The notes below the pieces were generated by a model, which saw only the letters and a program-made list of their open reading frames with translations, was not told the origin of the DNA and made no database searches. 64,000 nucleotides of DNA from Pseudomonadales bacterium (GTDB lineage: Bacteria; Patescibacteriota; Microgenomatia; UBA1400; PJMF01). Shown piece by piece: positions 1 through 45,224 of the stretch (its first letter is position 1; each line of letters starts with the position of its first letter). The DNA lies in assembly GCA_020632235.1 (NCBI GenBank), contig JACKFY010000002.1, positions 11,550 to 75,549 of the forward strand, given 5' to 3'. The translations under genes were made by a program, and so were the position numbers.

Positions 1-1515
1 TCTTTAAAGGGTGGCTGCGTCTAAGCCTACCTCCTAGGTGTCTTTGGATACGAACTTCCTTTACCACTAAATGTACACTTTGAGACCTTATCTGTAGGTC
101 TGGTTTGTTTTCCTTTTGCTCCTGGAACTTAGCTCCCAGGTGCTGAGTGCCGTGAAACAACAAAAAGTATTCGGAGTTTGACTAGATGCTCGAGATTGCT
201 CCCGAGACACCCGATCAGTGCTCTACCCCTTCTTGTCTTAACACGACCCTATACCTAAATATATTTCAGGGAGAACCAGCTATCTCCGGGTTCGATTGGC
301 ATATTACCCCTTACCACAACTCATCCGAGCCCCTTGCAGCGGACACCGGTGCGGACCTCCCTCTGACTTTCGTCAGAGCTCATCCTGGTCATGGTAAGCT
401 CACCCGGTTTCGGGTCATTCAATAACTACTCTCTCACCACAAGTGGTGAGAGACGCCCTATTCAGGCTCGCTTTCACTACGGCTTCCCCGCGAAACGGGT
501 TAACCTAAAGCAGTTATCAAATACTCGCAGGCTCATTCTTCAATAGGCACGAGATTACCCCTCACCTTGTTTTCTGGTTTATCCAGACGACAAGGTGAGG
601 GGCTCTCTCTGATTGTTAGCAGATAATTTCAGATTCTATTTCACGGGGTCTTCCACCCTTCTTTTCACCTTTCCCTCACGGTACTCGTTCACTATCGGTC
701 TTGTTTGGTATTTAGCCTTGGAGTGTGGTCACCCCAGCTTCGGAAGGGAGTTTGCCGTCTCCCAACTTACTCAGGAACACTGTATGGCATGTCTTATTTT
801 CGTATACACGACTGTCACGTTCTTTGGTTGCGTATTCCACCGCATTCTACTAAGAAGACATATCCACTATTCAGGTCCTACAACACCCCTCACTCTTTCC
901 TTCCAATTCTTTTCAAGAGTTCTGTCCATCCTTTTGCTCGTTTTTTCAACGCTTTTTCTCTGCGTTGAGCATATTTTCGTGCCTCGTATGCTTCATAGTA
1001 CACCAGGCACCAGTCATTCGTTCGACTGGTCCATTTACTACATCCAGAGTTGTGTTCTGTGTAGCGTCGTCGTAAGTCTGAGGTTTGTCCCACATAATAA
1101 CGATCAATGGCTGGGCTGTACAACACATACATATAAAACATAAAAACAATATTAAAACAAAAAGATGTCAAAAACCTTACATTGAAAAGAAAAAGTGAGG
1201 GGTTTGGGCTTTTCCCTGTTCGCTCGTCGCTTACTAAGGGAATCTCTTACGATTTCTATTCCTCTGGGTACTTAGATATTTCAGTTCCCCAGGTTACCTT
1301 CCCTCACCTCTTAGCCTCGAATTTCTTCAAGAACAAAAGGTGAGGGATCCCTTGCATCTCTACAAGGGGGGTTACCCCATTCGGACACCGCCGGATCAAA
1401 GCTTGATGACAGCTCCCCGACGACTTTCGCGGTCAATTTGCGTCCTTCTTCGGCCAAACAAGCCAAGGCATCCATTATCTGCGTTACTTCACATAAATAT
1501 TGCGAAATTGAGCTT
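1..1515 (-). rRNA. rrl: 23S ribosomal RNA, 5' ~1.06-kb portion; the gene continues past the window start. Interrupted by a ~290-nt insertion.
   Basis: Reverse complement matches conserved 23S blocks in order. The 5' end GGATGCCTTGGC..GAAGGACG lies near 1500. GGGGAACTGAAATATCTAAGTACCC is at ~1210-1290. GACCGATAGTGAACGAGTACCGTGAGGGAAAGGTGAAAAGAA is at ~630-700. GGAGATAGCTGGTTCTCC and GCAGCCACCCTTTAAAGA are at 1-20. Spacing between the ~250 and ~390 equivalents is ~290 nt longer than in E. coli. Confidence 0.9.
890..1171 (-). CDS. GIY-YIG nuclease superfamily protein (UPF0213/YhbQ-like), encoded inside the 23S rRNA insertion
   Basis: 93-aa ORF with YYVGQTSDLRRRYTEHNSG...KWTS...WCLVYYE...KRAKGW, the GIY-YIG core pattern. 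Same strand as the 23S gene. Occupies almost the whole inserted segment. Confidence 0.65.
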   Translation of the reverse strand: MTSFCFNIVFMFYMYVLYSPAIDRYYVGQTSDLRRRYTEHNSGCSKWTSRTNDWCLVYYEAYEARKYAQRREKALKKRAKGWTELLKRIGRKE

Positions 1516-1695
1516 TTCGATGCTTATTCAAGTATGACTCCCGATACAAGATCGGAAATCACCTTGGCCTTATATTGACATCAATATTAAAAAAACTTAT
1601 GTTTCTTCACTTTTTAAAGAACAAACCTAGCCAATATTAGTGACTAGTGTGTAACAACTGTGTGCCAATTATTACAAACTATGTACCAATCTGTG

Positions 1696-1790
1696 GACCC
1701 TAAGGCCTGCCCGCGCCTATCTGTGCAGATAGATGGGCGGGGGAGTCGAACCCCCTGGTCTTTCACTTCTTTTACATCTAATCTGTTCGT
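1696..1790 (-). other. tRNA 3'-half-like fragment (T-arm GGGGGTTCGACTCCCCC plus a copy of the tRNA-Ala 3' acceptor CCTTAGGGTCCA), with an interposed hairpin
   Basis: T-arm-like element and a duplicate of the last ~14 nt of tRNA-Ala. No matching 5' acceptor, D-arm or anticodon arm. A hairpin GCCC-ATCTATCTG-CA-CAGATAG-GCGCGGGC sits between them. Confidence 0.4.
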
Positions 1791-1807: not shown

Positions 1808-1881
1808 TGGACCCTAAGGGAGTCGAACCCTTGGCCTCCTGATTGCAAAACAGGCGCTCTAGCCACCTGAGCTAAGGGCCC
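1808..1881 (-). tRNA. tRNA-Ala (anticodon UGC)
   Basis: Reverse complement folds as a cloverleaf: GGGCCCT acceptor with a G3:U70 pair, D-arm GCTC/GAGC, anticodon loop TTTGCAA, T-arm AAGGG-TTCGACT-CCCTT, discriminator A. Lies upstream of and on the same strand as the 23S gene. Confidence 0.85.
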
Positions 1882-2969: not shown

Positions 2970-4298
2970 ATGATTGCCAGCCTGTCCATCCCCGGTATTA
3001 TCGCTATTTTTGTGCTCTTGGTGGTCTACACATTCTTGATCACCGAGAAACTACCCAAAGTGCTGGTCTCCATTCTTGGCGCGGCAACACTCATCGTACT
3101 GCAGGTATTTAACACCCATGACGCCACACCGCAGGAAAATGCCTTTCAATTTGTTGCCCACAATCTCGATATTTTGGGGTTTGTTATCGGCATGATGGTA
3201 CTGGTGGGCATCGTGCGCGAGTCTGGCTTTTTTGAGTCAGCAGCTATTTACTTGGTCAAACTAGTCAAAGGCCGTCCTGTAGCGCTCCTTATTGCTATTG
3301 GCTACTTGACGCTCGTTATGACAACATTTTTATCAAACATCCCGACCGTGCTGATCTTAACGCCGGTGGTGCTGGTCTTGGTCAAGCAGCTGAAACTTCC
3401 TGTCCTCCCCTACCTCTTTACGCTGGTGGTGATGGCCAATATTGGTGGTGCTATGACGCCTATTTCTGATCCTACTACCTACTACCAGGCAAAAACGGTT
3501 GGTCTTTCTTTTATGGAAGTGATGAGCAATTCTGGCTTGATCGTGCTTATTCTCTCGGTAGTCTCAATCGCCTACATCCTGCTTGTCTTTCGAAAACAGC
3601 TGGCCCAGGCCGCCAAGCAAGACACCGATGTCAGCACCTTTGACCCTAAATCGGCACTAGAAGATCACTACATTCTCAAAGTGGGCATTCCTATTATTAT
3701 CTTGAGTGTGCTCTTGATGGTGCTCAAAGATGCTATTGCCAGCACCTTTGGCATACAGTTGGATAACGCCACTATTACCGTTACATCTGCATTTTTATGC
3801 ATTCTTATCTTTCACAAAGACCCTCGGTCGGTGCTGAGAAATCTGATTGACTGGGAAATTATTTTCTTTTTTATTGGATTATTTATTGTTGTAGGCGCGC
3901 TCGAGTTCACGCATGTCATTGAGATGCTTGCAGATAGCCTGGTGAGTATTACAGGAGGCAATCTCACTCAGCTGGCGCTGTTACTTTCTGTTGGCTCTGG
4001 ATTACTCTCAACATTTATTGACAACGTCCCCTACAACATCACCATGGTCAGCGCCATTCAGGCCATGGAGGCATCAAGCATCTGGGTGTATCCTCTCTGG
4101 TGGGCGCTTAATTTGGGCACCTCAATTGGTGGCTTTGGCTCGCCCATTGCGGCTGCGTGTAACGTGATTATCTTTGGCCAGGCAGAAGAAGAAAAAATCC
4201 ATGTGCTATTTGCCAAGTACTTGGCGCTTGCCCTTCCGCTCGTCATCATTCACAGCTTGATTAGCTTTATGGTGATTTGGGCGCGGTACTTGCAGTAG
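2970..4298 (+). CDS. ArsB/NhaD-superfamily permease (anion/Na+-H+ antiporter-like transporter)
   Basis: 442 aa, ~11 TM segments, with duplicated motifs (FLSNIPTVLILTPVV...GGAMTPISDPTT and STFIDNVPYNITMV...GTSIGGFGSPIAAACNVI) typical of this superfamily. Confidence 0.7.
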   Translation: MIASLSIPGIIAIFVLLVVYTFLITEKLPKVLVSILGAATLIVLQVFNTHDATPQENAFQFVAHNLDILGFVIGMMVLVGIVRESGFFESAAIYLVKLVKGRPVALLIAIGYLTLVMTTFLSNIPTVLILTPVVLVLVKQLKLPVLPYLFTLVVMANIGGAMTPISDPTTYYQAKTVGLSFMEVMSNSGLIVLILSVVSIAYILLVFRKQLAQAAKQDTDVSTFDPKSALEDHYILKVGIPIIILSVLLMVLKDAIASTFGIQLDNATITVTSAFLCILIFHKDPRSVLRNLIDWEIIFFFIGLFIVVGALEFTHVIEMLADSLVSITGGNLTQLALLLSVGSGLLSTFIDNVPYNITMVSAIQAMEASSIWVYPLWWALNLGTSIGGFGSPIAAACNVIIFGQAEEEKIHVLFAKYLALALPLVIIHSLISFMVIWARYLQ

Positions 4299-5504: not shown

Positions 5505-6625
5505 CTTCAGAAACGAAACGCACCACTTTGGTAAAATCAGCAGATGAAAAGTGGACATAAAAAAGGAACACACTTGTCTCTAGAGGAGCGGGTGGAAATA
5601 TACAAATTAAAGGAACAAGGCTTCTCAATTCGTAGGATTGGAAGAAAAATAGGTCGCAACCATAGTGTGGTCAGTCGAGAACTGTCTCGAAACTCCAAGC
5701 CATTCAGCAATGAGGGATACAAACCAGTTAAAGCACACACACTATCCAAACAGAGGACAAAGATGCAGCGCCAACAGGCGCCACTCAAAAATCCAGCAGT
5801 ATTTTTGTATGTAAGAGAGAAACTAAGGATAAAGTGGACGCCAGAACAAATAGCGGGAAGATTACCCATTGATCATCCAGGTGAAAGTATCAGCTATGAA
5901 ACCATCTACCAATACATCTATGGTTTGGGAAGAAGAGATACGCTGTGGCACTACTTGGTTCGAGGTCACAAGAAACGAAAACCAAAGAAAACAGGTGCTG
6001 AGACTAAAAAAGCATCTAAAATAAAAGGAGTGGAGTCAATAGAACATCGCCCCACAAAGGCAAACAACCGCAAGCAAGCCGGGCACCGGGAAACAGATCT
6101 GATGGAATCTCCAAGAGGCATAGGTGCGAGCGTTTCAGCTCATATCGAGAGAAAAACAAGATTTATCAAACTTGAAAAGCTTGAGAATAAGAAAGCTGCA
6201 ACCAAGCAAAAAAGTATGCAAAAAACATTAAAAAAGATACAATCTGTGAGTAAGTCAAGAGATCCCATAATTAAGTCAATGACCTATGATAATGGCTCTG
6301 AGAATACGCAGCATCAAGAACTAGCTAAAAACATGCACAAAGGGTTATGTGTGTTATCCCTACCATTCTTGGGAAAAAAGGATCTGTTGAAAACATGATT
6401 GGAAGAGTGAGGAGATTTATTCCTAAAGGGACAGACCTCACCACCGTTAGTGAAGTGTATCTCCAGCAAGTTGAGAATTGGATTAACAACGCTCCGCTTA
6501 AATGTCTGAACCATCTAACACCAAATGAGGCAATGGCGAGAGAAGTTAACAAGTACAAGTTTAATCACTACAGAAAGGTCTTAGACCAAAGTGGTGCATT
6601 TCCAAATTGAATTCGGGTTTCAGAG
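5505..6625 (+). mobile_element. IS30-family insertion sequence (~1.1 kb) with imperfect terminal inverted repeats
   Basis: Left end CTTCAGAAACGAAACGCACCACTTTGG (5505-5531). Right end CCAAAGTGGTGCATTTCC...GGGTTTCAGAG (6586-6625). The reverse complement shares the 12-nt GCACCACTTTGG core and a CTYCWGAAAC outer segment. Encloses the IS30 transposase reading frames. Confidence 0.65.
5544..6610 (+). pseudogene. IS30-family transposase, frameshifted (ORFs 5544-6398 and 6347-6610)
   Basis: N-terminal HTH (LSLEERVEIYKLKEQGFSIRRIGRKIGRNHSVVSRELSRN). DDE region: GHRETDLM, TYDNGSEN, NMIGRVRRFIPKGTDL. The PY.SW-like segment (YVCYPYHSWEK) reads in a third frame around 6340-6380 next to an A6 run. At least one frameshift, probably two. 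Confidence 0.75.
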
Positions 6626-10940: not shown

Positions 10941-12866
10941 ATGGTAAACGCCGTTGGTGGCACACCGCCCACCACCCCACCACCCACCCCGCCCTCGTCA
11001 AGTACTGGCGAAGATGTGGCGACCAACAATCAGCCATCGACGGACATCTCCAGCTCCGACACATCGAAGAGCGATGCGACAACAAGCAACATGCCTCAAC
11101 CGCAGGCTACTCCTCCTCTAGCGGAAACACCCACCCAACAACCAGTTCCTTCCCCCATACCCACAGTGGCAGCCCCTCTTCCCGCTATGCCACCACAACC
11201 TGGTAGTCAGCTGCCAATAAAAACCCTTCCCGCCGTACCACAAGCTACCGTTAGCCAACAACTAGGAACTAAAAAATCTCAGCCACAAGCTAACCCAACT
11301 CTGGCGAAAGCAACTGCTCCTCCTCCCAAAGAAAAAAAGAGTAAAAAATGGATACTTGCAGGTGCGTTTGCTGCTCTCATTCTCTTGATTGGCGGGATTG
11401 GTGGGTTTTTCCTGATGCAACAAAACCAGGACTTGAGAAACCAGGCAGAGACTATTCCTACTCCAACTCCAAAAATAGCAGTTGTGGGCAGCTCATGTAC
11501 AAAACGAGCATACAAAAGCACTGGTCCTGACAGCAACACTCCCACAAGCACCTCTGTCACCCAGTTTGAACAAGATGAAGCCATTATTTTTGAAATTGAT
11601 GTCACCCAGACACAAGGGCCTGTTCCCCTGATTATTGAAGACGACTACTCTCAATTTTTGGGTGCAGGATGGGATATTGACTCAGTTATGGTCAATGGCT
11701 CTGACACCTGCCAGCCTGACGCGCAGTTTAATGCTAGTAACCCTGGAAAGTACCGCTGTACCTGGCTCATGGCTTCTCCAGGAGCAACACTACCGCTTGT
11801 TATGAGGCTAGAGCCAACGGGTAATCAACTCCAGTCTCTTTCTACTGGCTCAGCACAAAAGCTGACCAACACCGTCAGGCTCATTCCGTGTGAATCATGT
11901 GGTACTGGTGGTATGGAACAGACGGGAGTAGGTGAGCAACCTACTCAAAGTGAAGGGGTGTGTTCAGCACAGATTGAGATAACTACCCCAACAGAGCCAA
12001 CACTCAGCTGTAACAGCGCCTGTACTCCAGGAGCGGTCACTGGCTCTCGCACCGATATGTGCGCCCAGCAACTTGGCGGAGGGTACTCTTGCGTGCAAGT
12101 ACTTGATAAACCAGAAGATCCTAACGAACCAACTCATCGTTGCCGACTCACCAACAACCCAACTGATGAGCAGTGCAAAGAGATAATCGTCATTAATCCA
12201 CCATCACCCAAACCAGCACCGCCCGCATGTAACAGCCTCTGTACTCCTAGTGAAGATCCAGAAAAAGACGAGTGCACGCTTAATCTTGGCTCACAGTATT
12301 TGTGTCTTGATGCTACAGGAAGCTCGACTAGTGAAATACTCAGTGAATATCGCTGTCGACTCAAAGCAAACCCCACAAATGAACAATGTGTTGACCCAAA
12401 TAGAAAAATGACCTGTAACAGCACCTGCACGCTCTCTCTTACCAATGATGAAGTAGATGAGTGCGAACAAGATTTGGGCAGTGAGTATGTCTGTGCAAAT
12501 GTTTCAAGCTCGACTGAAAAAATACTAACCCGTTGCCGACTCAAAGCAAACACGGGTGATGTTTCTTGCAAACAACAAACGGGGCCAACTGCGACTCCTT
12601 CCAGCGCGCCTTCTGCCAACCCCTCGGCAACTCCACAGACAAGCCCAGCTGTGAGTAGTACGCCGTCAGCTTCTCCAGATACCTCATCAAGCCAGAGCCC
12701 GAGTCCAACCACCGGTATTACCGGTACACAGCCATCACCTACTCCGTCAACACAACCCGTGTTACCGCAAGAGTTGCCACAGACAGGTGCATTTGACTCA
12801 TCAGTACTCCTTAAAGTAGGAATGGTGATAGTCACGCTAGGAGCAGCAATTTTGCTACTACTATAA
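10941..12866 (+). CDS. cell-surface protein: Pro/Thr-rich N-terminus, signal-anchor TM, four Cys-rich repeat modules, C-terminal LPQTG sortase sorting signal
   Basis: C-terminus LPQELPQTGAFDSSVLLKVGMVIVTLGAAILLLL (LPxTG motif, hydrophobic segment, end). Internal repeats of the form CNSxCTP...C...Y.C...YRCRLKANPT.EQC. The start may be an internal Met. Confidence 0.75.
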   Translation: MVNAVGGTPPTTPPPTPPSSSTGEDVATNNQPSTDISSSDTSKSDATTSNMPQPQATPPLAETPTQQPVPSPIPTVAAPLPAMPPQPGSQLPIKTLPAVPQATVSQQLGTKKSQPQANPTLAKATAPPPKEKKSKKWILAGAFAALILLIGGIGGFFLMQQNQDLRNQAETIPTPTPKIAVVGSSCTKRAYKSTGPDSNTPTSTSVTQFEQDEAIIFEIDVTQTQGPVPLIIEDDYSQFLGAGWDIDSVMVNGSDTCQPDAQFNASNPGKYRCTWLMASPGATLPLVMRLEPTGNQLQSLSTGSAQKLTNTVRLIPCESCGTGGMEQTGVGEQPTQSEGVCSAQIEITTPTEPTLSCNSACTPGAVTGSRTDMCAQQLGGGYSCVQVLDKPEDPNEPTHRCRLTNNPTDEQCKEIIVINPPSPKPAPPACNSLCTPSEDPEKDECTLNLGSQYLCLDATGSSTSEILSEYRCRLKANPTNEQCVDPNRKMTCNSTCTLSLTNDEVDECEQDLGSEYVCANVSSSTEKILTRCRLKANTGDVSCKQQTGPTATPSSAPSANPSATPQTSPAVSSTPSASPDTSSSQSPSPTTGITGTQPSPTPSTQPVLPQELPQTGAFDSSVLLKVGMVIVTLGAAILLLL

Positions 12867-12931
12867 ACAAAAAATACAACGTAGTATGAAACGAAAATAA
12901 GTACTAAATTGAAGTAAACGTCACATTTTTT

Positions 12932-14608
12932 ATGAACGTACAACAAACAAATACTAGTAAACCTCAACCTCCTTTGTACGGAGACGCAAGTGGTCCTACT
13001 GTCCAAACAGAAAAAGTGGTCAAAAACAGCAAAAAACCTCCTTCAAAGAAAAAAGTACTACAGCTTATTGTTGGATTTGTGTTCTTTATGCTCCTAGTAG
13101 GTGGCTCTTCAGTGGGGCTCTACTTGGCACAACAACAACAGGATGTCAGAAACCAAGCTGCAGCAGATTTGTGTGCCAATATCACCAATAATGTCATTGG
13201 CACTATCAGCAAACCAATCATAGAAAATACAGGCAGAGCTCTGGCAACTGTTCAAAACACCTCTACAGATTGTACCCACGAACTGTCTTTGATGGCCTTT
13301 GAAGTATATGATGACATGCAAGACCCCAACTGGCTCAACACTCAAGTTCTATTTGATAGTAGTACTGCAACTATTGCTCCAGGGGAAACGCTTATTTTAG
13401 ATGTTCGGCTTCCCTCTTGTAACTATCAGATTGACCTAGCAGAAGGAAAGCCGCTCGTACCACCCGATTACAGATCTTCATCCCTGCACTTGTTTGACTT
13501 TGCATTTGGCGGAGGTGCACTATGTGGCGCCCCATCTACTCCTACTCCATCGCCCCAAGTATCGTCTGCACCACTCACTTGTAACAGTGTGTGTCAGCAG
13601 GCAGACAAAGACCAATGTACAGCAAGCATGGGGCCAGAATACTCATGTGTCATGACTGACGGCTCTCGCACAGGACGATGCAGAAGAACCAGCAATCCAA
13701 GTAGTGAAAAATGTGAAGCGCCTACTATTGTCAGTCCCTCTCCCTCTTCTACCACCCCACAATGTAACTCCACCTGTACTCCAGAAAGTGCTAATGTTAA
13801 AGATACATGCGTGCTCAGTATGGGCTCAGCATATGAGTGTACTGTTATCACTAACGCAAATCTTGAAATAAAAGATGAGTATAGATGTAGATTGAAGACA
13901 AACCCAACTAGCACTACGTGTCAAGCTCCTGCCTCGAATGAACCGATTGTCTGCAACAGTGTGTGTGATCCTCTAGCAGATAAATGTGGCGAGGCTGTAG
14001 GAGAAGGACATGCGTGCATCAACACCGCTACCGGCACTAATCGTGCTCAGTATCGCTGTCGAAGAGAAACCAACCCAACCAGCAGCACTTGTTCTCTACC
14101 TACTAGTGTCTCTCCGAGTCCAAGCGTAAGCCCTTCGGTGAGTCCAAGTATCTCTCCTTCTCCTAGCCCTACACCTACCTATACCTGCAACAGTACCTGT
14201 ACGGGTGACAGTCAGTGTCACAGCGCTAATGCAAGCTACGTCTGCTACAAAGAAGGTAGCAACACTACGGGAGTCTGTAGAATGGGTAACAACCCAAGTA
14301 ACACAAGTTGTCAGGCAGCCCAAGGTACCTATGCGTGTAACTCTACTTGCTCTGCAGATGCACAGTGTCAAACAATAGGTAGTGGCTACATCTGTCATGA
14401 GGGTGCATGTAGGATGAGTGCCTATCCAACCCAAACCAATTGTCAGGCACCGGTCGTAGCCCAGCAGCCTGTCTATCAGACACCGACTCCTGCCCAACCA
14501 GTCCTTCCTGAAGAACTACCCCAGACTGGCGCCTTTGACTTCTCACTGGTAGCAAAGATTGGTGTGGCTACCCTTGCACTGGGTGCTGCGCTACTACTTC
14601 TACTGTAA
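12932..14608 (+). CDS. paralogous cell-surface protein with ~6 Cys-rich repeat modules and a C-terminal LPQTG sorting signal
   Basis: N-terminus KKKVLQLIVGFVFFMLLVGG...QDVRNQA mirrors the upstream gene. C-terminus LPEELPQTGAFDFSLVAKIGVATLALGAALLLLL. Confidence 0.75.
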   Translation: MNVQQTNTSKPQPPLYGDASGPTVQTEKVVKNSKKPPSKKKVLQLIVGFVFFMLLVGGSSVGLYLAQQQQDVRNQAAADLCANITNNVIGTISKPIIENTGRALATVQNTSTDCTHELSLMAFEVYDDMQDPNWLNTQVLFDSSTATIAPGETLILDVRLPSCNYQIDLAEGKPLVPPDYRSSSLHLFDFAFGGGALCGAPSTPTPSPQVSSAPLTCNSVCQQADKDQCTASMGPEYSCVMTDGSRTGRCRRTSNPSSEKCEAPTIVSPSPSSTTPQCNSTCTPESANVKDTCVLSMGSAYECTVITNANLEIKDEYRCRLKTNPTSTTCQAPASNEPIVCNSVCDPLADKCGEAVGEGHACINTATGTNRAQYRCRRETNPTSSTCSLPTSVSPSPSVSPSVSPSISPSPSPTPTYTCNSTCTGDSQCHSANASYVCYKEGSNTTGVCRMGNNPSNTSCQAAQGTYACNSTCSADAQCQTIGSGYICHEGACRMSAYPTQTNCQAPVVAQQPVYQTPTPAQPVLPEELPQTGAFDFSLVAKIGVATLALGAALLLLL

Positions 14609-14611
14609 AGA

Positions 14612-14770
14612 CTATCCCCTCCTTCACCATAGAATGGTGAAGGAGGGGTGTTTTAGCACTTCCTTTGTAAGGGAAGACATCCCGACTTTAGTCGCGATAG
14701 AAGGGTTTACCTCTGTTATTTCGATCCGCCGGCTGGCGGATACAAATCTGCATGGAACAGAGATCTCTCC
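14612..14770. repeat. composite hairpin-repeat element (family member)
   Basis: Modules shared with other copies: CACCATAGAATGGTG + GGGGTGTTTT; CCTTTGTAAGGG; GAAGGGTTTACC; reverse-complemented CCGCCAGCCGGCGGATCGAAA motif. Confidence 0.5.
14613..14650 (+). terminator. intrinsic terminator-like hairpin (CCCCTCCTTCACC-ATAGAA-TGGTGAAGGAGGGG, then TGTTTT); also the first module of a composite repeat element
   Basis: 13-bp GC-rich stem, followed by a U-rich tract, 5 nt after the stop of the preceding gene. Confidence 0.55.
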
Positions 14771-14824
14771 TGTCCACGTTATTCCAGTTGAAATGGCAAG
14801 AAAAAAGGACGGCAAAAGCACTAT

Positions 14825-14950
14825 GCGTCTACTAGGACTTACCGATGCTGCGATCGGCACAGGCTTCTCGCCCTACTAGCCGCGTGTGCGTCTACTAGGA
14901 CTTACCGATGCTGCGATCGGCACAGGCTTCTCGCCCTACTAGCCGCGTGT
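14825..14950. repeat. two tandem 63-bp direct repeats, each beginning with the last 15 nt of the adjacent tRNA (GCGTCTACTAGGACT) and containing the palindrome CCGATGCTGCGATCGG
   Basis: Exact duplication at 14825-14887 and 14888-14950. A third copy of the 15-nt start is the 3' end of tRNA-Ile itself (14951 onward). Confidence 0.85.
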
Positions 14951-15023
14951 GCGTCTACTAGGACTCGAACCTAGAACCCCCAAGGTATAAGCTTGGTGCT
15001 CTCACCAATTGAGCTATAGACGC
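14950..15023 (-). tRNA. tRNA-Ile, anticodon UAU (reads AUA)
   Basis: Reverse complement: GCGTCTA-TA-GCTC-AATTGGTGA-GAGC-A-CCAAG-CTTATAC-CTTGG-GGGTT-CTAGG-TTCGAGT-CCTAG-TAGACGC-A. Canonical cloverleaf with anticodon loop C-U-UAU-A-C. Confidence 0.75.
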
Positions 15024-15119
15024 ACGGACAAAAGCATTATACCCCACCACCCACCCCCACCAAAGCAGTGAGTTAGTCTGGTAAAACCAAGCAGCTCGCG
15101 GTACAATACCGCTCGCGGT

Positions 15120-16145
15120 ATGAAAAAAACTCAAACATTTCTAAACAAACACTGGAAAAAACTACTGTTATTCCTTATTTTGTTTGCAGGAGTAGGCGCT
15201 CTTGTGTATGCCCAAGCAAAACCAGAGGTAGAAGAAGTTGTTACTGCTCATCCAGAGATAAAAACCATCACCCAAACACTCGACGTAAGCGGTATTGTCG
15301 ATGCAAAAACAAAAGCAGCGCTCAGTTTTGCCGGCGGGGGCAAGCTTGTCTCACTCAATGTCAAAGAGGGTGAGTACGTGGGCAAAGGCGCACTTATCGC
15401 ATCGCTTGACCAAGCACTTTTGAATAAACAACTGTGGTATGAGCTCAACACCTTTAAAAAAGAGCGTATCGACTGGGACCAAACGCTTGATGACTTTGAG
15501 GAAACCAACCAAACTATTGAAGACAACAGAGCAAAAGAAAAAGACCAACTTGATCTTGATAACAGCGTGCTTAAAGTAGAGATGCAGTCTCTTGCCTTTC
15601 GTGATGCGCGACTAACGGCACCTTTTGCAGGAGTAATCACTGCCCTACCAGTGCCAACAGCGGGTATTGTGATTGGCCCCCAAGACGTGTTCGAACTAGT
15701 TGACCCCACCACCCTTGTGATGCGTGCTGCGGTAGACGAAACAGACATCGCGAAAGTAACCCAGGGGCTCTCGGCTCGTGTGACACTTGATGCTCACCCT
15801 GATGATGAAGTGCGCACGCAGGTGTCCTACATCTCACCTACTAGCCAACAGTCGAGCACGGGCACAGTCTTTGTGGTAGAGCTACCACTCGATACTGTTG
15901 CAGGACTCAACTACTATCGCCTAGGAATGAACGGCGATGTCACCATCATTATTCAAGAAAAAACAGGTGTGTTGAGCGTACCTATTGATGCAACTATCGT
16001 GCGAGACGAAAAAACGTATGTTGAGGTACAACATGCTGATGGCAGTCTGGAAGAAAAAGAAATAGAGGTGGGGATTGAAACTGAAAACGAAGTAGAAGTA
16101 GTGCAAGGGCTCTCGACACAAGATAGTATCGTCATCCCTAGTTAG
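15120..16145 (+). CDS. efflux periplasmic adaptor subunit (HlyD/MacA-like)
   Basis: N-terminal signal-anchor, coiled-coil centre, beta-barrel C-terminus (RLTAPFAGVITAL, GMNGDVTI). First gene of an adaptor-ATPase-permease triad. Confidence 0.7.
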   Translation: MKKTQTFLNKHWKKLLLFLILFAGVGALVYAQAKPEVEEVVTAHPEIKTITQTLDVSGIVDAKTKAALSFAGGGKLVSLNVKEGEYVGKGALIASLDQALLNKQLWYELNTFKKERIDWDQTLDDFEETNQTIEDNRAKEKDQLDLDNSVLKVEMQSLAFRDARLTAPFAGVITALPVPTAGIVIGPQDVFELVDPTTLVMRAAVDETDIAKVTQGLSARVTLDAHPDDEVRTQVSYISPTSQQSSTGTVFVVELPLDTVAGLNYYRLGMNGDVTIIIQEKTGVLSVPIDATIVRDEKTYVEVQHADGSLEEKEIEVGIETENEVEVVQGLSTQDSIVIPS

Positions 16146-18486: not shown

Positions 18487-20817
18487 CTACAAATTACTCC
18501 TGCTTTGTATCTCTGCCTCCACCATCTCTTTATCTTTACCATACTTCAGGCGCGAGAGCTGCTTTATCATCTCGGCTAGCTTGGGGTTCATCTTGGCTTT
18601 AATTGCATCCATGTCTTTCATCAAACTCATGCTAAAGGGTGGCACTGGCTCGTTCTTCACAATGGTACGAATGTAAACGTGGTACTTCTCAATGTTGGTC
18701 AGGTCGCCCTCATTAAAGGTGGGTGCAAACTCGTGTTGCAAAAAGTTAGCATCAGGCACACCCACACGAAATGACACAATCGTACCCACGTTGCCAAACA
18801 CAGCGTTTTTCACATCTTCGTCAATCTGGCTCACAAACTGGTTGGCCACAATCAGATTGAGGCGATACTTCCTAGCCTCCGAGAGAATAACCGCAAAATC
18901 TTCGGTGGCGTAGTTTTGAAACTCATCCACATATAAAAAGAAGTCTTCGCGCTGATCCATCGGCACATCTTGCCTACTCATAGCAGCTGTCAGTACCTTT
19001 GGTACTAAGATTAAACCTAAAAACTTAGCGTCTTCTTCTCCCAGAATTCCTTTTGAAAGGTTGCATAAAATAATCTTTTTCTCATCCATGGCCTTTCTAA
19101 AGTTAAAAGCACTATGAGGCTGGCCAATAATGTTACGCATAGTTTTGTTGGTTACAAATCTGCCAAACTTCGAGACGATGTAGTCCAATACCTCAGACTT
19201 ATGAAAATCACTGGTTTGGGCAATTTGGTCTGTCCAGTAGCGCTTCACCACCGGGTCTTTGACGTACGGCAGTAGCTCGTTAACATACTTGCTATCGGTG
19301 AGCACGCGCACTAGCTCTATAAACGTACTCCCCTTTTTGTACATGATAGTGAGCATGGCATTGCGAATAGCGTGCTCAAACCGCGGTCCAATGATACCCG
19401 TGCGATGTGGATCATACAGCTTGTACATCAAACCAATGATGGAACTCACCACAAAGTGACGCTGCTCCTCAGTGTCTGCCTCCATCATGTTCATTCCCAT
19501 TGGTCGGGTCAAATCTGAGGGGTTAAAGTAAATAACATCTTCAGCACGCTCTGGCGGCATCAGCTGCAGAATGTCTTCGACAAACTCACCGTGGGGGTCA
19601 ACCGCGCACACACCGTATCCAGATTCAATATCCTGCATAATCATTTCTTTTAAAAACTCTGACTTGCCCGTACCAGTTTTCCCAATGATGTACATATGCC
19701 GCCTTCTGTCATCCAGCGACATATGCACCTCGCGCTCTTGGCCACGATAGAGTGATTTACCCAAAAATAACCCTTTGGTAGGGATCATGCTTGGTGCCGG
19801 AGCATTTTTAGCATTCAGCCACTTAATATGATGTGTTTCTACTGTTTTATTCGGAAAGTGAAAGATGGTAGCTAGCTCTTCTGTATTTAAAATAGCAGTG
19901 TTTCGATTAAAAAACGGCATGTAGCGATACAAAAAATCAATCATAAAAATGTGTTTTAAAAACACCCTACCCTTGTCAAACCCGTTGTAGGCAGATGAAA
20001 ACTGGGCAAAAGCGCCCGTGATGTTGTTGAGGTGCGACTCAGCAGAGTACTCATTGGTGGACGACACCACCACGCGTATAGCCACCCGAAATCCAGGTTT
20101 TTCTGTCTTGGTGGCGATCGCCTCCATCTCTTTTGGATCGTGTCCATAGGTCGCTTTTTCCGGATCAGCCTCTTTTTTCTTTTCGTTTTGAATGTGTGAT
20201 CTACCCTGGTCTCGCCACTTTTTGCCCTCGGGGCGAAGTAAAATCTGGACAATTGCGCCCTCACCGTCATCAAGTTTGGAAAGGGCCGAGGTAATGAGTG
20301 ACAGCCCGTCGGTGGGCAAGTCTTTGTAGGTCTTGATGGGGTAGTAATTGGCTTTTTCTAGCTTGAGTGCGGCAAAGTCAACCCGCCCCTTTTCACTAAA
20401 AATATTCACTTCGTCGCGCTCCGAGATATCAGCGTTGGGGTACGCCCCGTGAATCTGCTTTTCTACCAGGTCGCGGATTTTTTTGGGACAGCTGATGTAA
20501 AAACTAATCTCTTCTTTCAGTGCCACTACCTCAAACGAAAAGACATCTTCTGGTTTTAAAAATGAAAAAACACCACTGTGTTTGATGGAGTACAGCCCAG
20601 CAAACATCTGTTCGGCAGCGTCGATCTTGATTTCGTTGTCTTTGGGCAGGCGCACCAGCAGTGAAACAAAATCAAGCGCATACTCTTCGCGGTTTCTGTG
20701 TTTATACCACTGCAGCAACATGTAGAAAAACACCGCGATGATGGCAGCAAAAATAAGAAGGAAAAACACCAGACTGGCTATTTCTAAAATCTGGGATGCT
20801 ATATTTTGTGTATCCAT
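18487..20817 (-). CDS. membrane-anchored P-loop ATPase of the FtsK/HerA (AAA_10 / T4SS coupling-protein-like) type
   Basis: 776 aa. One N-terminal TM. Walker A MYIIGKTGTGKSEF, then CAVDPHGEF, then Walker B FFLYVDEFQNY, then RKYRLNLIVANQ. No VirB4-type CagE N-terminal domain. Confidence 0.6.
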   Translation of the reverse strand: MDTQNIASQILEIASLVFFLLIFAAIIAVFFYMLLQWYKHRNREEYALDFVSLLVRLPKDNEIKIDAAEQMFAGLYSIKHSGVFSFLKPEDVFSFEVVALKEEISFYISCPKKIRDLVEKQIHGAYPNADISERDEVNIFSEKGRVDFAALKLEKANYYPIKTYKDLPTDGLSLITSALSKLDDGEGAIVQILLRPEGKKWRDQGRSHIQNEKKKEADPEKATYGHDPKEMEAIATKTEKPGFRVAIRVVVSSTNEYSAESHLNNITGAFAQFSSAYNGFDKGRVFLKHIFMIDFLYRYMPFFNRNTAILNTEELATIFHFPNKTVETHHIKWLNAKNAPAPSMIPTKGLFLGKSLYRGQEREVHMSLDDRRRHMYIIGKTGTGKSEFLKEMIMQDIESGYGVCAVDPHGEFVEDILQLMPPERAEDVIYFNPSDLTRPMGMNMMEADTEEQRHFVVSSIIGLMYKLYDPHRTGIIGPRFEHAIRNAMLTIMYKKGSTFIELVRVLTDSKYVNELLPYVKDPVVKRYWTDQIAQTSDFHKSEVLDYIVSKFGRFVTNKTMRNIIGQPHSAFNFRKAMDEKKIILCNLSKGILGEEDAKFLGLILVPKVLTAAMSRQDVPMDQREDFFLYVDEFQNYATEDFAVILSEARKYRLNLIVANQFVSQIDEDVKNAVFGNVGTIVSFRVGVPDANFLQHEFAPTFNEGDLTNIEKYHVYIRTIVKNEPVPPFSMSLMKDMDAIKAKMNPKLAEMIKQLSRLKYGKDKEMVEAEIQSRSNL

Positions 20818-28646: not shown

Positions 28647-30458
28647 CTACCCCACCCTAATCCCACCAAGCTCCACAAGCGTTGTCACGTCGCCCAACGC
28701 CTTGTCTTCACGGATACCCACCAACCGAGGAAACCTAAGCGCCACACCTGCGGTGTGGCTTGGCGAAGTAGTAATTTCATCGGCGGCAAGTTCTACCACC
28801 AGTTCTGGCTCCACCCAGATATCAGGAGTGTGTTGCTTATCTACCTGGTAGTTTTTTGGTTGCTGAGAAACTTCAAGGTTTGCCAAACGGGCTTTAAGCT
28901 CGGCTAACTGCGCCTCTGTCATACCCGTTCCTACTTTGGTAAGTGTTACTACCTGCAAATCGTTGGTTGAAGTATCAATGACACCTGCTAAAAATGCTCC
29001 TATGCCAAACTGAGCTCTGCTGCCCTTACCCAAGTAGTATCCCATTATCACTGCGTCAACAGTGTCAGAAAGTTTGCCACTACTTCCCTCTGACTCCTTT
29101 ATCTTGACCCAAGACCAACCCTTTCGACCACTTTGGTACACCGAATCAAATTGCTTTACCACTGCCCCCTCCAAACCTTTTTCTAGTTCTGCTTCATGAA
29201 ATGAGTGCAGCTGAGTTGCGTCTGTCGTAACAATAAACGGAGTAAGCTCAAGCGATGGACCCGAGGTAACAATTTTTTTAAGTAACTGTTTTCTTTCACT
29301 CAAAGGTATATCAAGTTGGCCCTCTTCCTCGAAGAGTAATACATCGTAAATATAAAAACGAATCGGCACCTCGCTTGATTGCTCTGCAACACCATGTTTT
29401 CTCTTTCTTGTGATTGTTTTTTGAAACGGCAGAAGCTGATCATTGACTGGGTCATACCCAATTGCCTCTCCGTCAAGAATACATGATTCACACTCAAGGA
29501 GTTGAGGGAGCGTATCTATCTCTGGGAACATATACGTCACATCTTCCAAACTTCTAGTAAACACTTGAGTACTTGGTTTTCCTTGGCTGGATTTCTGAAT
29601 ATGAATCTGCACACGCAGACCATCATACTTTGGCTCGGCAATTACCTTACCCATTTTTTCAATAATTTCTGCAGAGGTATTCAACCGCTGGCACAGCGCT
29701 GGCACGACCGGGATACCCACCACTACTTTGTATTGATTTTTCAATGTGCGCTCTACATCGTCAAGAGTATCTTTGTTGGTGACGTTCGAGAGGTAAAACA
29801 ACGCCAAGTTGCCTATGTCTGCCTGCTTTTGGTAGGCGTCCTCTAGCAGACCTCGGTGTGACTTATCACCTACAATAGACCAAGAAAGCGCATCGATCAT
29901 GGTCATCACCGAAAACCCCAGGCGCATCTTGCCCATGACAATTCTGGTCACGTACTTGGCAGAAAGCGCGTCGAGTCGCCCGAGAAGTGATGAGAGTGCC
30001 GCTACCTTTCTCTCCTGCGAGCCCTGGCCACTGTCTTGGGCAATACGTAGTAAATCTTCAAATACTTCCTGAAGGGACATGCTAGAAGGCCGCGCGCTAG
30101 TCAAGCTAGCTGAGGCTTCTCGCACTGCTAGTGCTGTCTGGCCTATATCACCTATCTGTTTGTACAAACGCTCAACTTCTTGAATCTTGTTTTCAGAAGA
30201 AGACTCACCAAACAGATCAACTGCTACATCAGCTTGAGGCATTAGCTGAGCAAGTGAGCGAATCAGCATCTTGGCAGATAACTGAAACTCTAGAGACTGA
30301 TACGCGGGCACCAAACCTCCCTGCAGTAAGTAGCTGGCAGGAATAATCTCTGCTTCATCCAGTTTTTTAAACAAATCAGCTAAAATCCCTGTCATTTCTA
30401 ACCGAGAGGAATGCTGTTCTAGCTGTAATAAAGTTTTGGAAAATGTTGCAAAAAGCAT
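28647..30458 (-). CDS. ATP-dependent DNA ligase
   Basis: Motif I AEPKYDGLRVQIH (active-site Lys), downstream nucleotidyltransferase and OB-domain motifs. Start set at MLFATFSK; an upstream in-frame Met is possible. Confidence 0.85.
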   Translation of the reverse strand: MLFATFSKTLLQLEQHSSRLEMTGILADLFKKLDEAEIIPASYLLQGGLVPAYQSLEFQLSAKMLIRSLAQLMPQADVAVDLFGESSSENKIQEVERLYKQIGDIGQTALAVREASASLTSARPSSMSLQEVFEDLLRIAQDSGQGSQERKVAALSSLLGRLDALSAKYVTRIVMGKMRLGFSVMTMIDALSWSIVGDKSHRGLLEDAYQKQADIGNLALFYLSNVTNKDTLDDVERTLKNQYKVVVGIPVVPALCQRLNTSAEIIEKMGKVIAEPKYDGLRVQIHIQKSSQGKPSTQVFTRSLEDVTYMFPEIDTLPQLLECESCILDGEAIGYDPVNDQLLPFQKTITRKRKHGVAEQSSEVPIRFYIYDVLLFEEEGQLDIPLSERKQLLKKIVTSGPSLELTPFIVTTDATQLHSFHEAELEKGLEGAVVKQFDSVYQSGRKGWSWVKIKESEGSSGKLSDTVDAVIMGYYLGKGSRAQFGIGAFLAGVIDTSTNDLQVVTLTKVGTGMTEAQLAELKARLANLEVSQQPKNYQVDKQHTPDIWVEPELVVELAADEITTSPSHTAGVALRFPRLVGIREDKALGDVTTLVELGGIRVG

Positions 30459-30502
30459 GCAACTATTATAGCTAACAAAGACTAACAAAATAGCGTGAAA
30501 TC

Positions 30503-31102: not shown

Positions 31103-32194
31103 TTACTCCACCAGCCGATACGTCACGCCCTTGGTCACACCTTGTTTTTCTAACACTCCCTTTTCTATCAGGTCTTTAATATCGCGCAAGATAGTATCGA
31201 TAGAAACATTGGGCAACACATGCAGTGCGTCATCAGAGGTAATCTCTTCTTGGTTTTGGAAAAGTTCGAGCAAAATAATCTGCCGCTCGGAAAGCGCCAC
31301 CTGCTTGCCCAGCTGGCGCTTCAGCTTTAGGTCTTTGGAAAGCTTGGTCACCTGACGTTGTACTTTATCAAGCTCGATAGCCAAGCCGTAACAAAAATAC
31401 TCCAGCCAGTAGGTAAGGTCTGCCTCGCTGCTGTGTTGTACTGAGAGTAACGCCCGGTAGTACGCCTCGACATCGCTATCAAAGTACTGCTCGAGCGAGA
31501 AAAACTTTTTAAAGTCATACCCTAGGGTGTAGAGCACGAGCGACGCTACTGCTCGCGCCGTTCGCCCATTTCCCTCAATAAACGGATGAATATACACCAG
31601 TTGATAATGTGTGATAGCTGCCCGAAAGATAGCGTGCACACTTTCAGCACTAGAAGAAAGCGCCCACTCAAAAAAATCATCAATCAAGTAGGGGATCTCG
31701 ACAGAGACAGGTGGGCGAAACACCACCTGGCCACTGGTCGCACTTTTGACAATCACCTGTTTGTCACGAAACTGACCTACATACTCATCTGGCACTAGGT
31801 GCGTCACCGTAATCTCGTGAATATCTTTGAGCATCTTTTCGGTAAATACATCACTATACTTCAGGCTTGTTTGGTCACTCATCCATGACAGCACGTTACG
31901 ATAGTTGATGACTTCTTGAATATCACGCTGGCGCGCTACAATCCCCGTTTTTTTAGCCAGCTCACCACTATCGTTTTCTTCCCTCAGGCGAACTACTTGC
32001 TCTGCCTGCTCTTCTGTCAGATCATTACCCTCTATTTTAGTGCCAAAATGAACTGTTCTAGTCAGCGCCTCATTTCGAAACTTTGCCTCCCAGGCAGGAA
32101 CAAGCGGCGCGTTATCAATCAGTGTCTTTGCTGCCTCTATTTTACTGATGTAGGTAAGGAGGTTGTTTGTTATAGTGAAATGGGGTTGGTACAT
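31103..32194 (-). CDS. Fic/DOC family protein
   Basis: Fic motif HPFIEGNGRTARA. Start placed at MYQPHF to remove the divergent overlap; the ORF is open to 32386. Confidence 0.85.
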   Translation of the reverse strand: MYQPHFTITNNLLTYISKIEAAKTLIDNAPLVPAWEAKFRNEALTRTVHFGTKIEGNDLTEEQAEQVVRLREENDSGELAKKTGIVARQRDIQEVINYRNVLSWMSDQTSLKYSDVFTEKMLKDIHEITVTHLVPDEYVGQFRDKQVIVKSATSGQVVFRPPVSVEIPYLIDDFFEWALSSSAESVHAIFRAAITHYQLVYIHPFIEGNGRTARAVASLVLYTLGYDFKKFFSLEQYFDSDVEAYYRALLSVQHSSEADLTYWLEYFCYGLAIELDKVQRQVTKLSKDLKLKRQLGKQVALSERQIILLELFQNQEEITSDDALHVLPNVSIDTILRDIKDLIEKGVLEKQGVTKGVTYRLVE

Positions 32195-32237
32195 ACTCCC
32201 ACAGTACAGTATTTTCGCAAAAACTGCAAAAGTAACT

Positions 32238-32774
32238 ATGCCAGACATCAAAACGCCCGATACTCTCAGGGATTTACCCTCTGCTATCATTGAAAACATC
32301 ACCACGCTCGCCACTAATGGCTTTGCTTTGGTAGTTGCCCTGGCCTGGAATGAGACGGTCAAGCTCTTTGTCACCCAGTTTATCAACCCCCATCTTGGTC
32401 AAACAGGTGAGTTGATCTCACTCACCCTCTACTCTATTGTCATCACTCTGTTTGCTGTGTTTATCACCATGCAGCTCTCGGCATTTCAAAAAAAGGTAGA
32501 AGAAATTGAAGACAAAATCCTGCCGCACGACATAGAAGACGACGAGCTAGCCGAGGCTGCTAGCCTGGCAATAGGCAGCACCTACAAACACTTCAAAGGT
32601 GCCACCGTCAAGATCTTGGATGTTGCCAGGCACTCAGAAACCAAAGAAGCTATGGTGGCCTACACCCACCTGGATACTGGCGAAACGTGGGTCCGCCCCT
32701 TGACTATGTTTATGGAAAAAGTGGAGGTCAAGGGCAAATGGGTGCCTCGATTTAAAAAGATCACTACAAAATAA
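32238..32774 (+). CDS. DUF1653-domain protein with an N-terminal membrane-associated segment
   Basis: C-terminal YKHFKGATVKILDVARHSETKEAMVAYTHLDTGETWVRPLTMFMEKVEVKGKWVPRF matches the DUF1653 pattern. Confidence 0.55.
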   Translation: MPDIKTPDTLRDLPSAIIENITTLATNGFALVVALAWNETVKLFVTQFINPHLGQTGELISLTLYSIVITLFAVFITMQLSAFQKKVEEIEDKILPHDIEDDELAEAASLAIGSTYKHFKGATVKILDVARHSETKEAMVAYTHLDTGETWVRPLTMFMEKVEVKGKWVPRFKKITTK

Positions 32775-44657: not shown

Positions 44658-45224
44658 ATGAAGAAACTTTTTCTCTCTGCTCTACTTGGTTTTTGTCTGA
44701 TGCTTACGCCTAGCGTGTATGCCCAGGGCATGCTCAACACCCCTAGTGACCAAACAGGTGACGTGGTAGCACGCAAAGATGGTGACATACTGTACCTAAC
44801 CACCTCGGTTACTGACAATAGCGCAAGCGGTACTACCGAGCAAACAAGCCAGACAACCACTACTACCTCCAGCACCCAACAAGATGGCGATGTTGTACTG
44901 AATACCTACTTTGGCCAAATTGTGATACCACAAGGCTACTTTCATAACTTTGGAGAGCTTTTCACAAAGCTCCTCACTGCAGCCATGGCGGTGGCAGCTC
45001 TGCTCACGCTTGGGTTTCTCATCTGGGGCGCGTTTAAGTGGATCACCTCTGGCGGTGATAAAGGGAAAATTGACTCAGCTCGCTCGACCCTTATTGCCGC
45101 GGTGGTAGGGCTCATTATTGTCGCTGCCTCGTACGCTATTTTACTACTAACCCTCAACTTCCTCGGCATTGAAGGTGGCCTCAATGGCCTACTACAACGG
45201 GCTGGCTCTGCCATGAGCAACTAA
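44658..45224 (+). CDS. T4SS pilin-like protein, paralog of the 44063 gene with a longer Thr-rich N-terminal region
   Basis: AAMAVAALLTLGFLIWGAFKWITSGGDKGKIDSARSTLIAAVVGLIIVAASYAILLL...GIEGGLNGLLQRAGS; shares the GYFxNFGxL and C-terminal motifs with 44063. Confidence 0.6.
   Translation: MKKLFLSALLGFCLMLTPSVYAQGMLNTPSDQTGDVVARKDGDILYLTTSVTDNSASGTTEQTSQTTTTTSSTQQDGDVVLNTYFGQIVIPQGYFHNFGELFTKLLTAAMAVAALLTLGFLIWGAFKWITSGGDKGKIDSARSTLIAAVVGLIIVAASYAILLLTLNFLGIEGGLNGLLQRAGSAMSN

Follow-up and report, generated by a model that had tools for sequence, protein, structure and literature searches.

A stretch of 64,000 nt from a genome of the Microgenomatia (assembly GCA_020632235.1, contig JACKFY010000002.1, positions 11,550 to 75,549; hereafter the window) was analyzed with a focus on a gene for tRNA-Ile with anticodon UAU and on the tandem array of 63-nt units directly behind it. 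The tRNA gene occupies positions 14950..15023 of the minus strand (74 nt, discriminator A73 at 14950). ARAGORN reports it as tRNA-Ile, anticodon TAT, at 14949-15023 on the minus strand, and the Rfam family RF00005 matches it with 73.6 bits. Read on the minus strand as GCGTCTA-TA-GCTC...GAGC-A-CCAAG-CTTATAC-CTTGG-GGGTT-CTAGG-TTCGAGT-CCTAG-TAGACGC-A, it folds into a canonical cloverleaf with A37 and discriminator A73; the CCA end is not encoded. The canonical tRNA with anticodon UAU proposed in an initial annotation of this DNA is borne out by the ARAGORN call, the Rfam score and the fold. By direct reading, a TATAAT hexamer, a possible −10 box, lies 13 nt 5′ of the tRNA start (15036..15041, minus strand); it was not called in a consensus promoter scan.

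Architecture and copy number of the tandem array

Tandem Repeats Finder reports positions 14824-14965 as a repeat with a period of 63, 2.3 copies and 100% matches, the 142 nt corresponding to 2.25 periods. Followed in the orientation of the tRNA, the array has the layout 16-47-16-47-16, after which a unique T-rich flank begins. All its members are on the minus strand. The first 16-nt core, AGTCCTAGTAGACGCA (14950..14965), is the A58-A73 segment inside the tRNA-Ile gene itself. It is followed by a 47-nt spacer, CACGCGGCTAGTAGGGCGAGAAGCCTGTGCCGATCGCAGCATCGGTA (14903..14949, direct reading), an exact 16-nt copy of the core (14887..14902), a second spacer identical to the first (14840..14886) and another exact 16-nt core copy, the last member of the array (14824..14839). 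The flank after the third 16-mer reads TAGTGCTTTTGCCGTCCTTTTTT; the unique T-rich trailer TAGTGCTTTTGCCGTCCTTTTTTCTTGCC (14795..14823, minus strand, direct reading) is identical in a near-identical assembly, L001, and probably represents the original 3′ flank of the tRNA-Ile gene.

The block of identity has its exact limits at A58, in the T-loop, and at discriminator A73; upstream of it the resemblance to the tRNA breaks off abruptly. With up to three mismatches allowed, the 16-mer occurs three times in the window against 0.4 expected, a number reached in none of 100 shuffles. The 47-mer occurs twice against 0 expected, again a number that no shuffle reached, and neither sequence is found elsewhere in the window. 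The initial annotation had described two exact 63-bp tandem repeats that restart with the tRNA 3′ end. The repeats and their 100% identity hold, while strand and lengths had to be corrected: the repeated tRNA terminus comprises 16 nt (A58..A73) instead of 15, and the remainder 47 nt instead of 48. The terminus quoted there, GCGTCTACTAGGACT, reads along the plus strand and so is the tRNA 3′ end in reverse complement, and the repeats lie immediately 3′ of the tRNA only in its own, minus, orientation. Besides the strand, two features discussed below had been overlooked, a trailing fragment of tRNA-Ala and a GIY-YIG open reading frame (ORF) inside the 23S rRNA gene.

The palindrome noted earlier in the spacer forms a hairpin (GCCGAT-CGCAGC-ATCGGT in spacer 1) with a stem of 5 bp, extended to 7 bp if the adjoining U-A and G-U pairs are included, and a loop of 6 nt; no U-run follows it. 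The altered T-loop of the 63-nt unit reads GGTAAGTCC. A terminator scan found sites at 14616-14648 only and none within the units, so that the description of the units as terminator-like is not supported. A permissive Rfam scan of positions 14550-15130, even at E ≤ 10, revealed no tRNA-like or other RNA family in the units; a match to the Plastid-ycf2 family was discarded as the antisense of tRNA-Ile. The 5′ part of the spacer, GCGGCTAGTAG, resembles the 5′ end of tRNA-Ile, GCGTCTATAG (p ~0.009 in shuffles). The filler was also considered as a whole pseudo-tRNA, and its global alignment to tRNA positions 1-58 was not significant (p ~0.1). Since only the 5′-terminal resemblance of GCGGCTAGTAG stands out, the whole pseudo-tRNA is a suggestion, not a result.

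The array varies between assemblies. In L001 (GCA_020429115.1), which is near-identical to the window with the same flanks and 20 mismatches in 7 kb, the array is 16-47-16 only. Two Logan contigs from other read sets, L007 and L008 (99.86-99.88% identical, five mismatches each), both start exactly at window position 14936. Logan assemblies use a de Bruijn graph with k = 31. The next base after the 30-mer at 14936 is c in the tRNA and t at the unit-unit junction, a branch that arises only with at least two tandem units; the two-unit state is therefore present in independent data. The array is not an artefact of this assembly, a possibility raised initially: two independent read sets break at a node that needs at least two units. 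The 16-47-16 core is present in all near-identical assemblies. Unit number is one versus at least two (the latter deduced from the branch) among strains at least 99.5% identical, where the one-unit state of L001 is either a real allele or an assembly collapse. Because simple duplication of unique sequence cannot give 2.25 periods, the array presupposes a 16-47-16 state.

Tail copies and GIY-YIG reading frames at tRNA genes

Loci of relatives were fetched via the HlyD protein encoded beyond the tRNA gene. In ~25 of the closest 35-40 relatives tRNA-Ile(UAU) adjoins the HlyD operon, and the differences among its orthologues in the acceptor, anticodon and T stems are compensatory. With this comparative alignment, a check that the initial annotation had suggested, tRNA-Ile(UAU) is a conserved feature of this lineage within the Microgenomates. 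Relative to the operon the gene is in '+' orientation in 14 loci and in '-' orientation in 11. It comes in two sequence types, each of which is found in both orientations (L003, L006, L009-L043). Site-specific inversion was considered as the cause of the flipping and rejected, no inverted core copies flanking the tRNA in any locus.

Four further species have a downstream direct copy of the 3′ end of their own tRNA-Ile(UAU), from position 57-59 to 72-75. The spacer between tRNA and copy is 368 nt in L016, with one ORF; 101 nt in L017, masked as N; 126 nt in L025, with no ORF and two mismatches in the copy; and 121 nt in L029, with no ORF. The L016 spacer contains a terminator-like hairpin and, as its sole ORF, a GIY-YIG reading frame (Pfam PF01541, E=8.4e-15), located exactly between the tRNA and its copy. 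Most relatives, including L009, which has the closest tRNA, lack a tail copy. With the window counted, tail copies occur in 5 of the 11 '-' loci and in none of the 14 '+' loci (hypergeometric probability ~0.009, calculated by hand). In the '-' orientation it is a convergent gene, not the HlyD operon promoter, that lies on the 3′ side of the tRNA. Strains of the L016, L017, L025 and L029 species were sought, and no cluster representative closer than 68% was found.

Two contig features were seen at these tRNA genes. In L017 a run of 100 N (3734-3833) extends from one base past the tRNA discriminator to the exact start of the tail copy; this scaffold gap or mask may hide a cassette. In another species, the Logan contigs L004 and L005 both begin 46 nt upstream of tRNA-Ile(UAU), a recurrent break.

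An indexed search recovered few homologues of the GIY-YIG ORF, which were fetched; a scan of JGI metagenomes with the family alignment then yielded 80 loci. At these loci, 53 of 91 GIY-YIG ORFs lie within 150 nt of a tRNA gene, and 16 isoacceptor families are represented. The neighbouring tRNA is on the strand of the ORF in 61 of 63 cases. Beyond the ORF, 29 of the 63 ORF-tRNA pairs show the same tRNA once more, as a partial or pseudo copy that scores above all 200 shuffles; in those 29 metagenomic cases what lies between the tRNA and its partial copy is a GIY-YIG ORF and no integrase. The tRNA-linked ORFs are single-domain, 65-85 aa long and in chromosomal contexts. The closest solved structures are those of UPF0213 proteins (1zg2, E=2e-14; 1ywl) and SLX1. 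PADLOC, PHROGs and NCBIfam gave weak GIY-YIG-motif matches only, with no assignment to a defence system or named family.

Breakpoints of the copies fall in D-, anticodon- or T-loops. When the tRNA is upstream of the ORF, the far copy is a 3′ part that starts in the T-loop (L121, L135/L137, L152) or the anticodon loop (L093). A tRNA downstream of the ORF goes with a 5′ part as far copy, which ends in the D-loop (19-24), in the anticodon loop (35-38) or just before the T-loop (52). A T-loop breakpoint like A58 of the window is also found in L016, L017, L029, L121, L135 and L152. In L089, tRNA-Leu positions 1-24 are followed by a 26-nt GC hairpin, positions 25-42, the ORF and an intact tRNA-Leu(GAG); in L090, a pseudo-tRNA-Gln cut off in the T-loop is followed by the ORF and an intact tRNA-Gln. 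The ORFs of L089, L090 and L178 lie between a tRNA 5′ fragment with GC hairpin and an intact tRNA. Full-length pseudo-tRNAs with arms replaced or interrupted by CCCGC...GCGGG hairpins occur in L145, L157, L158 and L164. Pieces of tRNA or pseudo-tRNA may alternate with GIY-YIG ORFs in tandem arrays (L093 1400-2400, L164 540-1060, L157 1300-2000), and the pseudo-copies in these arrays have palindromic inserts such as CCTGCCTGCCGGCAGGCAGG in the anticodon loop. In L093 three ORFs surround one tRNA-Arg(CCT), and on each side the tRNA is broken at position 37.

Small GIY-YIG ORFs of a second kind, which begin RQYWVYIL..., have repeats of the CTTCGACAAGCTCAGGRTGACA type and of its complement on their flanks. 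Sites of this type are found at L017 7400-7910, L018 5070-5600, L053 7290-7490, L018 1360-1420 and L121 1640-1680. The motif lies directly 3′ of tRNA-Ile(UAU) in L018 and of tRNA-Ser in L121, and it recalls the hairpin repeats of Ssn nucleases.

The window itself contains two further instances. The tRNA-Ala(UGC) gene (1808..1881, minus strand, by ARAGORN and Rfam; ARAGORN limits 1807-1881) has, 52 nt downstream and still ahead of the 23S rRNA gene, a pseudo copy of its 3′ part (1694..1755, minus strand). This fragment consists of a T-arm-like hairpin, GGGGGTTCGACTCCCCC (1739-1755), whose stem differs from that of tRNA-Ala, a hairpin insert of 30 nt (1709-1738) and 12 nt, CCTTAGGGTCCA (1694-1705), that repeat the tRNA 3′ end exactly; the bases after the 12-nt copy resemble the trailer of tRNA-Ala itself.

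The 23S rRNA gene (1-1498) has, according to the Rfam alignment, a 298-nt insertion in the loop of the helix CCCCUCAC/GUGAGGGG (window 890-1190, minus strand; model position ~285). The insertion carries an intact, single-domain GIY-YIG ORF of 83 aa (890..1141, minus strand, found by tblastn; Pfam PF01541, E=1.8e-14), the stop codon of which is inside the 3′ strand of the rRNA helix. Elsewhere, the 5′ domain of the 23S gene has lesser expansions of 28 nt and ~31 nt. Against a hidden Markov model built on 96 GIY-YIG ORFs of the fetched loci, of which slightly more than half adjoin a tRNA, the 23S-borne protein scores 73.6 bits. As judged by sequence similarity, it belongs to the same protein family as the tRNA-linked ORFs of relatives. 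A protein 57% identical to it, P0126, sits in another 23S gene, and one 43% identical, P0135, is encoded between a tRNA-Trp 5′ fragment with GC hairpin and an intact tRNA-Trp.

Origin of the 63-nt units

We favor the reading that the 63-bp units are an ORF-less relic of a tRNA-targeting GIY-YIG cassette that was later tandemly duplicated, with a probability of about 0.5. The assignment is based on the shared breakpoint and architecture, the recurrence at the same tRNA and the two further instances in the window. According to this proposal, the simplest account of all the observations, small selfish cassettes would insert into genes for structured RNAs at their loops; in a tRNA gene, here at the T-loop, the insertion would leave an intact tRNA beside a partial copy. 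A complete cassette would encode a single-domain GIY-YIG nuclease of 65-85 aa transcribed on the strand of the tRNA; judging by the same-strand rule, such a co-oriented ORF could therefore use the tRNA promoter. Each unit of the window would be a 47-nt hairpin-bearing, vaguely tRNA-like filler plus an exact copy of tRNA positions 58-73. The nuclease ORF may have been lost from the site, or may never have been carried, the element relying on a nuclease elsewhere, e.g. that of the 23S insertion; loss or absence of the ORF would have left 16-47-16. For the second unit, slippage or unequal recombination involving the 16-nt repeats would be responsible, perhaps set off by nuclease cuts. The proposal thus supposes that nucleases of this family cut tRNA genes, and that the ORF-less units of the window and the GIY-YIG cassettes had a common origin.

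Several observations weigh against the relic reading. No GIY-YIG ORF lies between tRNA and copy in the window units, and among the five tRNA-Ile(UAU) cases such an ORF is present in one, L016. A search for a decayed GIY-YIG coding remnant with hmmsearch --max found none in the window units and flank or in the spacers without an ORF in L025, L029 and other loci. Because they contain neither ORF nor remnant, the units are presumed to be a relic or a non-autonomous derivative, not a member of the cassette family. In a blastn-short search of 891 kb of fetched loci the 47-nt filler was matched in the same strain only, and the same was found for the downstream flank. A 22-mer of the tRNA 3′ half had no exact match in 185,579 species genomes and JGI metagenomes, from both of which this species is absent. 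With no homologue of the filler found outside its strain in the fetched loci, the link to the cassettes rests on shared architecture and breakpoint, not on filler homology. Further, no pair of filled and empty alleles that would show insertion directly was found, the single-unit allele of L001 could be an assembly collapse, and the GIY-YIG subfamily is one without known nuclease activity or target.

In a bolder form of the proposal, the 63-nt units would still be active as non-autonomous representatives of a class of mobile cassettes not described before. This class would target loops of structured-RNA genes (D-, anticodon- and T-loops of tRNAs, hairpin loops of rRNAs), might be moved, or tandemly amplified, in trans by single-domain GIY-YIG nucleases, such as the one of the 23S insertion, and would spare the host by keeping one intact tRNA beside a hairpin-disrupted pseudo-copy while exploiting the tRNA promoter. 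Taken jointly, these suppositions are doubtful.

Plain slippage or unequal crossing-over, with no mobile element involved and a minisatellite overlapping the tRNA end by chance, would agree with the perfect head-to-tail copies and with their differing number in near-identical strains. However, it needs a pre-existing 16-nt direct repeat 47 nt apart, the L001 state, which itself requires explanation; it accounts for the second unit, but not for the first. Moreover, a T-loop-to-3′-end copy with an unrelated spacer is present in four other species, and the tRNA-Ala of the window has one too. We consider a purely replicative or recombinational origin unlikely.

A direct repeat extending from the T-loop to the 3′ end of a tRNA is the classical signature of integrase-mediated insertion. 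The array could accordingly be the scar of a tyrosine- or serine-integrase element, an island in the tRNA 3′ end bounded by attL and attR that was deleted nearly completely, with 47 nt left. The recurrence of the direct repeat in relatives would fit. Against such a scar, no integrase or recombinase domain was found among the ~43 ORFs of the window, and in the five species the spacers are 47-368 nt long and the only gene found there is GIY-YIG. A search of 2.9 million viral contigs (IMG/VR) gave no attP-like match to the 16-mer, one chance hit in a coding region aside, and the 29 metagenomic cases likewise have a GIY-YIG ORF in place of an integrase. The integrase explanation is therefore improbable. 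What remains of the att-like character noted initially is the duplicated tRNA 3′ end (16 nt in three exact copies), as foreign DNA leaves it; a classical att site, given the missing integrase and the mere 47 nt between repeats, it is not.

The units might instead be a selected RNA element in the tRNA 3′ trailer, serving as a processing, stability or termination signal or as a tRNA-like decoy, in which selection would keep the copy of the acceptor 3′ strand identical to its counterpart in the tRNA. In favor of it are a stable fold of the unit (-25 kcal/mol, z = -2.3), perfect conservation of the 16 nt next to a remainder unrelated to the tRNA, and a T-arm-like hairpin retained in several distal copies (L029, L135 and the tRNA-Ala fragment of the window). 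Yet the units contain no intrinsic terminator and match no Rfam family, the filler differs from species to species and the number of units from strain to strain, and most relatives, L009 with the closest tRNA included, do without a tail copy; we regard selection for a trailer RNA as quite improbable. That the second unit was mis-assembled, as the single unit of L001 might hint, is hardly credible in view of the breaks of the L007 and L008 contigs and the 16-47-16 found in all assemblies.

Genomic context, AUA decoding and known systems

The tRNA-Ile gene is preceded in the window by genes for ribosomal protein S1, phosphoglycerate kinase and two large proteins without Pfam matches. The latter are ORFs of 641 and 558 aa between pgk and the tRNA (10941-14608, plus strand) with no Pfam or NCBIfam family; L003 has a 575-aa ORF at the same position. 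Beyond the tRNA lie an efflux operon (HlyD, ABC ATPase, MacB-FtsX) and a VirD4/HerA-like ATPase. An ORF of 284 aa (5544-6398, plus strand) has HTH_38, HTH_32 and HTH_23 matches only, resembling an IS30-like N-terminus, and no transposase catalytic domain was detected in it. A scattered set resembling type IV secretion components (18487-20817, 44658-45224, 46040-49750 and 56435-62613) includes a VirD4/TrwB-like ATPase, a pilin of type IV secretion systems, a PrgI-like protein and very large SLT- and M23-peptidase proteins. Other genes of the window specify an ATP-dependent DNA ligase (28647-30488) and a Fic protein (31103-32386).

NCBI lists an identical HlyD protein under 'Candidatus Woesebacteria bacterium', and its relatives come from Patescibacteria of the Microgenomates; the nearest non-identical HlyD homologues are only ~49% identical. 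The same HlyD protein is labelled both 'Pseudomonadales bacterium' and 'Candidatus Woesebacteria bacterium', and many third-party annotation records of evident Patescibacteria are titled 'uncultured Pseudomonadales/Gammaproteobacteria bacterium' (L009-L088). As taxonomic labels, such names are probably placeholders or mistaken.

The tRNA-Ile(UAU) gene is best explained as a functional, lineage-conserved AUA decoder of a Microgenomates/'Woesebacteria' genome. AUA is a well-used codon, making up 21% of Ile codons (13.2 per 1000) in 27 ORFs of the window. The initial annotation had seen in the UAU gene a sign of decoding independent of TilS. Among the ~43 ORFs scanned, no tilS-like Pfam match was found, a result that bears on these 64 kb only, and ARAGORN finds no tRNA-Ile2(CAU) in the window, tRNA-Ala(UGC) and tRNA-Ile(UAU) being the only tRNAs; ileS lies outside the window. 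Bacterial UAU tRNA-Ile is known from Mycoplasma mobile, Bifidobacterium and Neorickettsia, all without tilS (PMC3575796). A UAU gene alone is no proof of TilS independence, because some Firmicutes have both tilS and a TAT tRNA gene (PMC3575796). Like the tRNAIle2(UAU) system of M. mobile, the present one has a genome-encoded UAU tRNA-Ile with A37 and discriminator A73. That system is defined by the absence of tilS and by a UAU-adapted isoleucyl-tRNA synthetase (IleRS), whereas the one here is known from the tRNA gene alone and belongs to a different lineage, the Microgenomates. The hallmark of UAU-adapted IleRS is Arg at the position of M. mobile 865, or an IleRS of eukaryote type (PMC3575796). 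Literature searches on lysidine or tilS in Patescibacteria returned nothing specific. Given its conserved UAU tRNA, a large clade of the Microgenomates becomes a candidate for AUA decoding without lysidine.

Modest on their own, the tRNA-Ile(UAU) gene and its 63-bp duplication are of value as an entry point: they led to single-domain GIY-YIG genes that in uncultured bacteria sit systematically within partly duplicated tRNA genes. These small genes are widespread 'hypothetical' ORFs of UPF0213 type, whose closest characterized relatives are single-stranded DNA (ssDNA) or homing nucleases. Literature searches for tRNA-nested GIY-YIG ORFs found no paper describing the arrangement, and single-domain cassettes of this kind in Patescibacteria and other uncultured bacteria are apparently undescribed. 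If the cassette reading is true, the enigmatic UPF0213-type proteins would have a directly testable target, tRNA genes, and many partial or pseudo-tRNA calls and contig breaks beside tRNAs in assemblies of the Candidate Phyla Radiation (CPR) would be explained.

In terms of known arrangements, the object, a tRNA gene with tandem tail copies, is a presumed relic that varies a well-known theme, the tRNA fragments that mobile DNA leaves behind. With integrase-generated attL/attR duplications it shares the repeat from T-loop to 3′ end, the retained intact tRNA and the distal position of the partial copy. It differs from them in the window by the lack of an integrase, the 47 nt between repeats and the tandem arrangement, and in relatives by a cargo that consists of the GIY-YIG ORF only.

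SegB is a phage-encoded, multi-domain protein of ~220 aa with a GIY-YIG domain and a C-terminal DNA-binding region. This free-standing homing endonuclease, the gene for which resides among clustered tRNA genes, reportedly cuts within sequences that contain tRNAs, and by way of recombination it drives the tandem amplification of a unit made of tRNA and segB (PMC2330249, PMC13096335). It is a precedent for a GIY-YIG nuclease amid tRNA genes with tandem amplification and in this way supports the cassette reading. SegB of phages T4/T6 and the cassettes of relatives have in common a GIY-YIG gene among tRNA genes and tandem units of tRNA and ORF. In contrast to SegB, the ORFs of relatives are single-domain, 65-85 aa long, chromosomal and placed between a tRNA and a duplicate of part of it, and the units of the window hold no ORF. 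If real, the cassettes would be a chromosomal counterpart to tRNA amplification driven by phage SegB.

GIY-YIG ORFs in non-intron insertions of CPR rRNA genes have been described in a paper that never mentions 'tRNA' (PMC11270868). The 23S gene of the window carries exactly such an ORF (890-1141), in an insertion in a hairpin loop. The insertions at tRNA genes differ in that they bring a partial gene duplication that preserves an intact tRNA; if the cassette reading holds, the rRNA-insertion phenomenon of the CPR would extend to tRNA genes.

Finally, the Ssn proteins, which have a single GIY-YIG domain, cleave ssDNA beside the hairpin repeats on the flanks of their own genes (PMC11893778). The tRNA-linked proteins are similar to Ssn/UPF0213 nucleases (PDB 1zg2, 1ywl) in having a single GIY-YIG domain and in size, and CCCGC...GCGGG hairpins are found beside their ORFs, here inside pseudo-tRNA copies. 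Ssn genes are flanked by dispersed NTS/SRM repeats instead of tRNA fragments, tRNA being unmentioned in that report (PMC11893778). The Ssn clade is cd10448, to which the tRNA-linked proteins may or may not belong. By analogy with Ssn, one may speculate that hairpins formed by tRNA genes in single-stranded DNA are the targets of the tRNA-linked nucleases.

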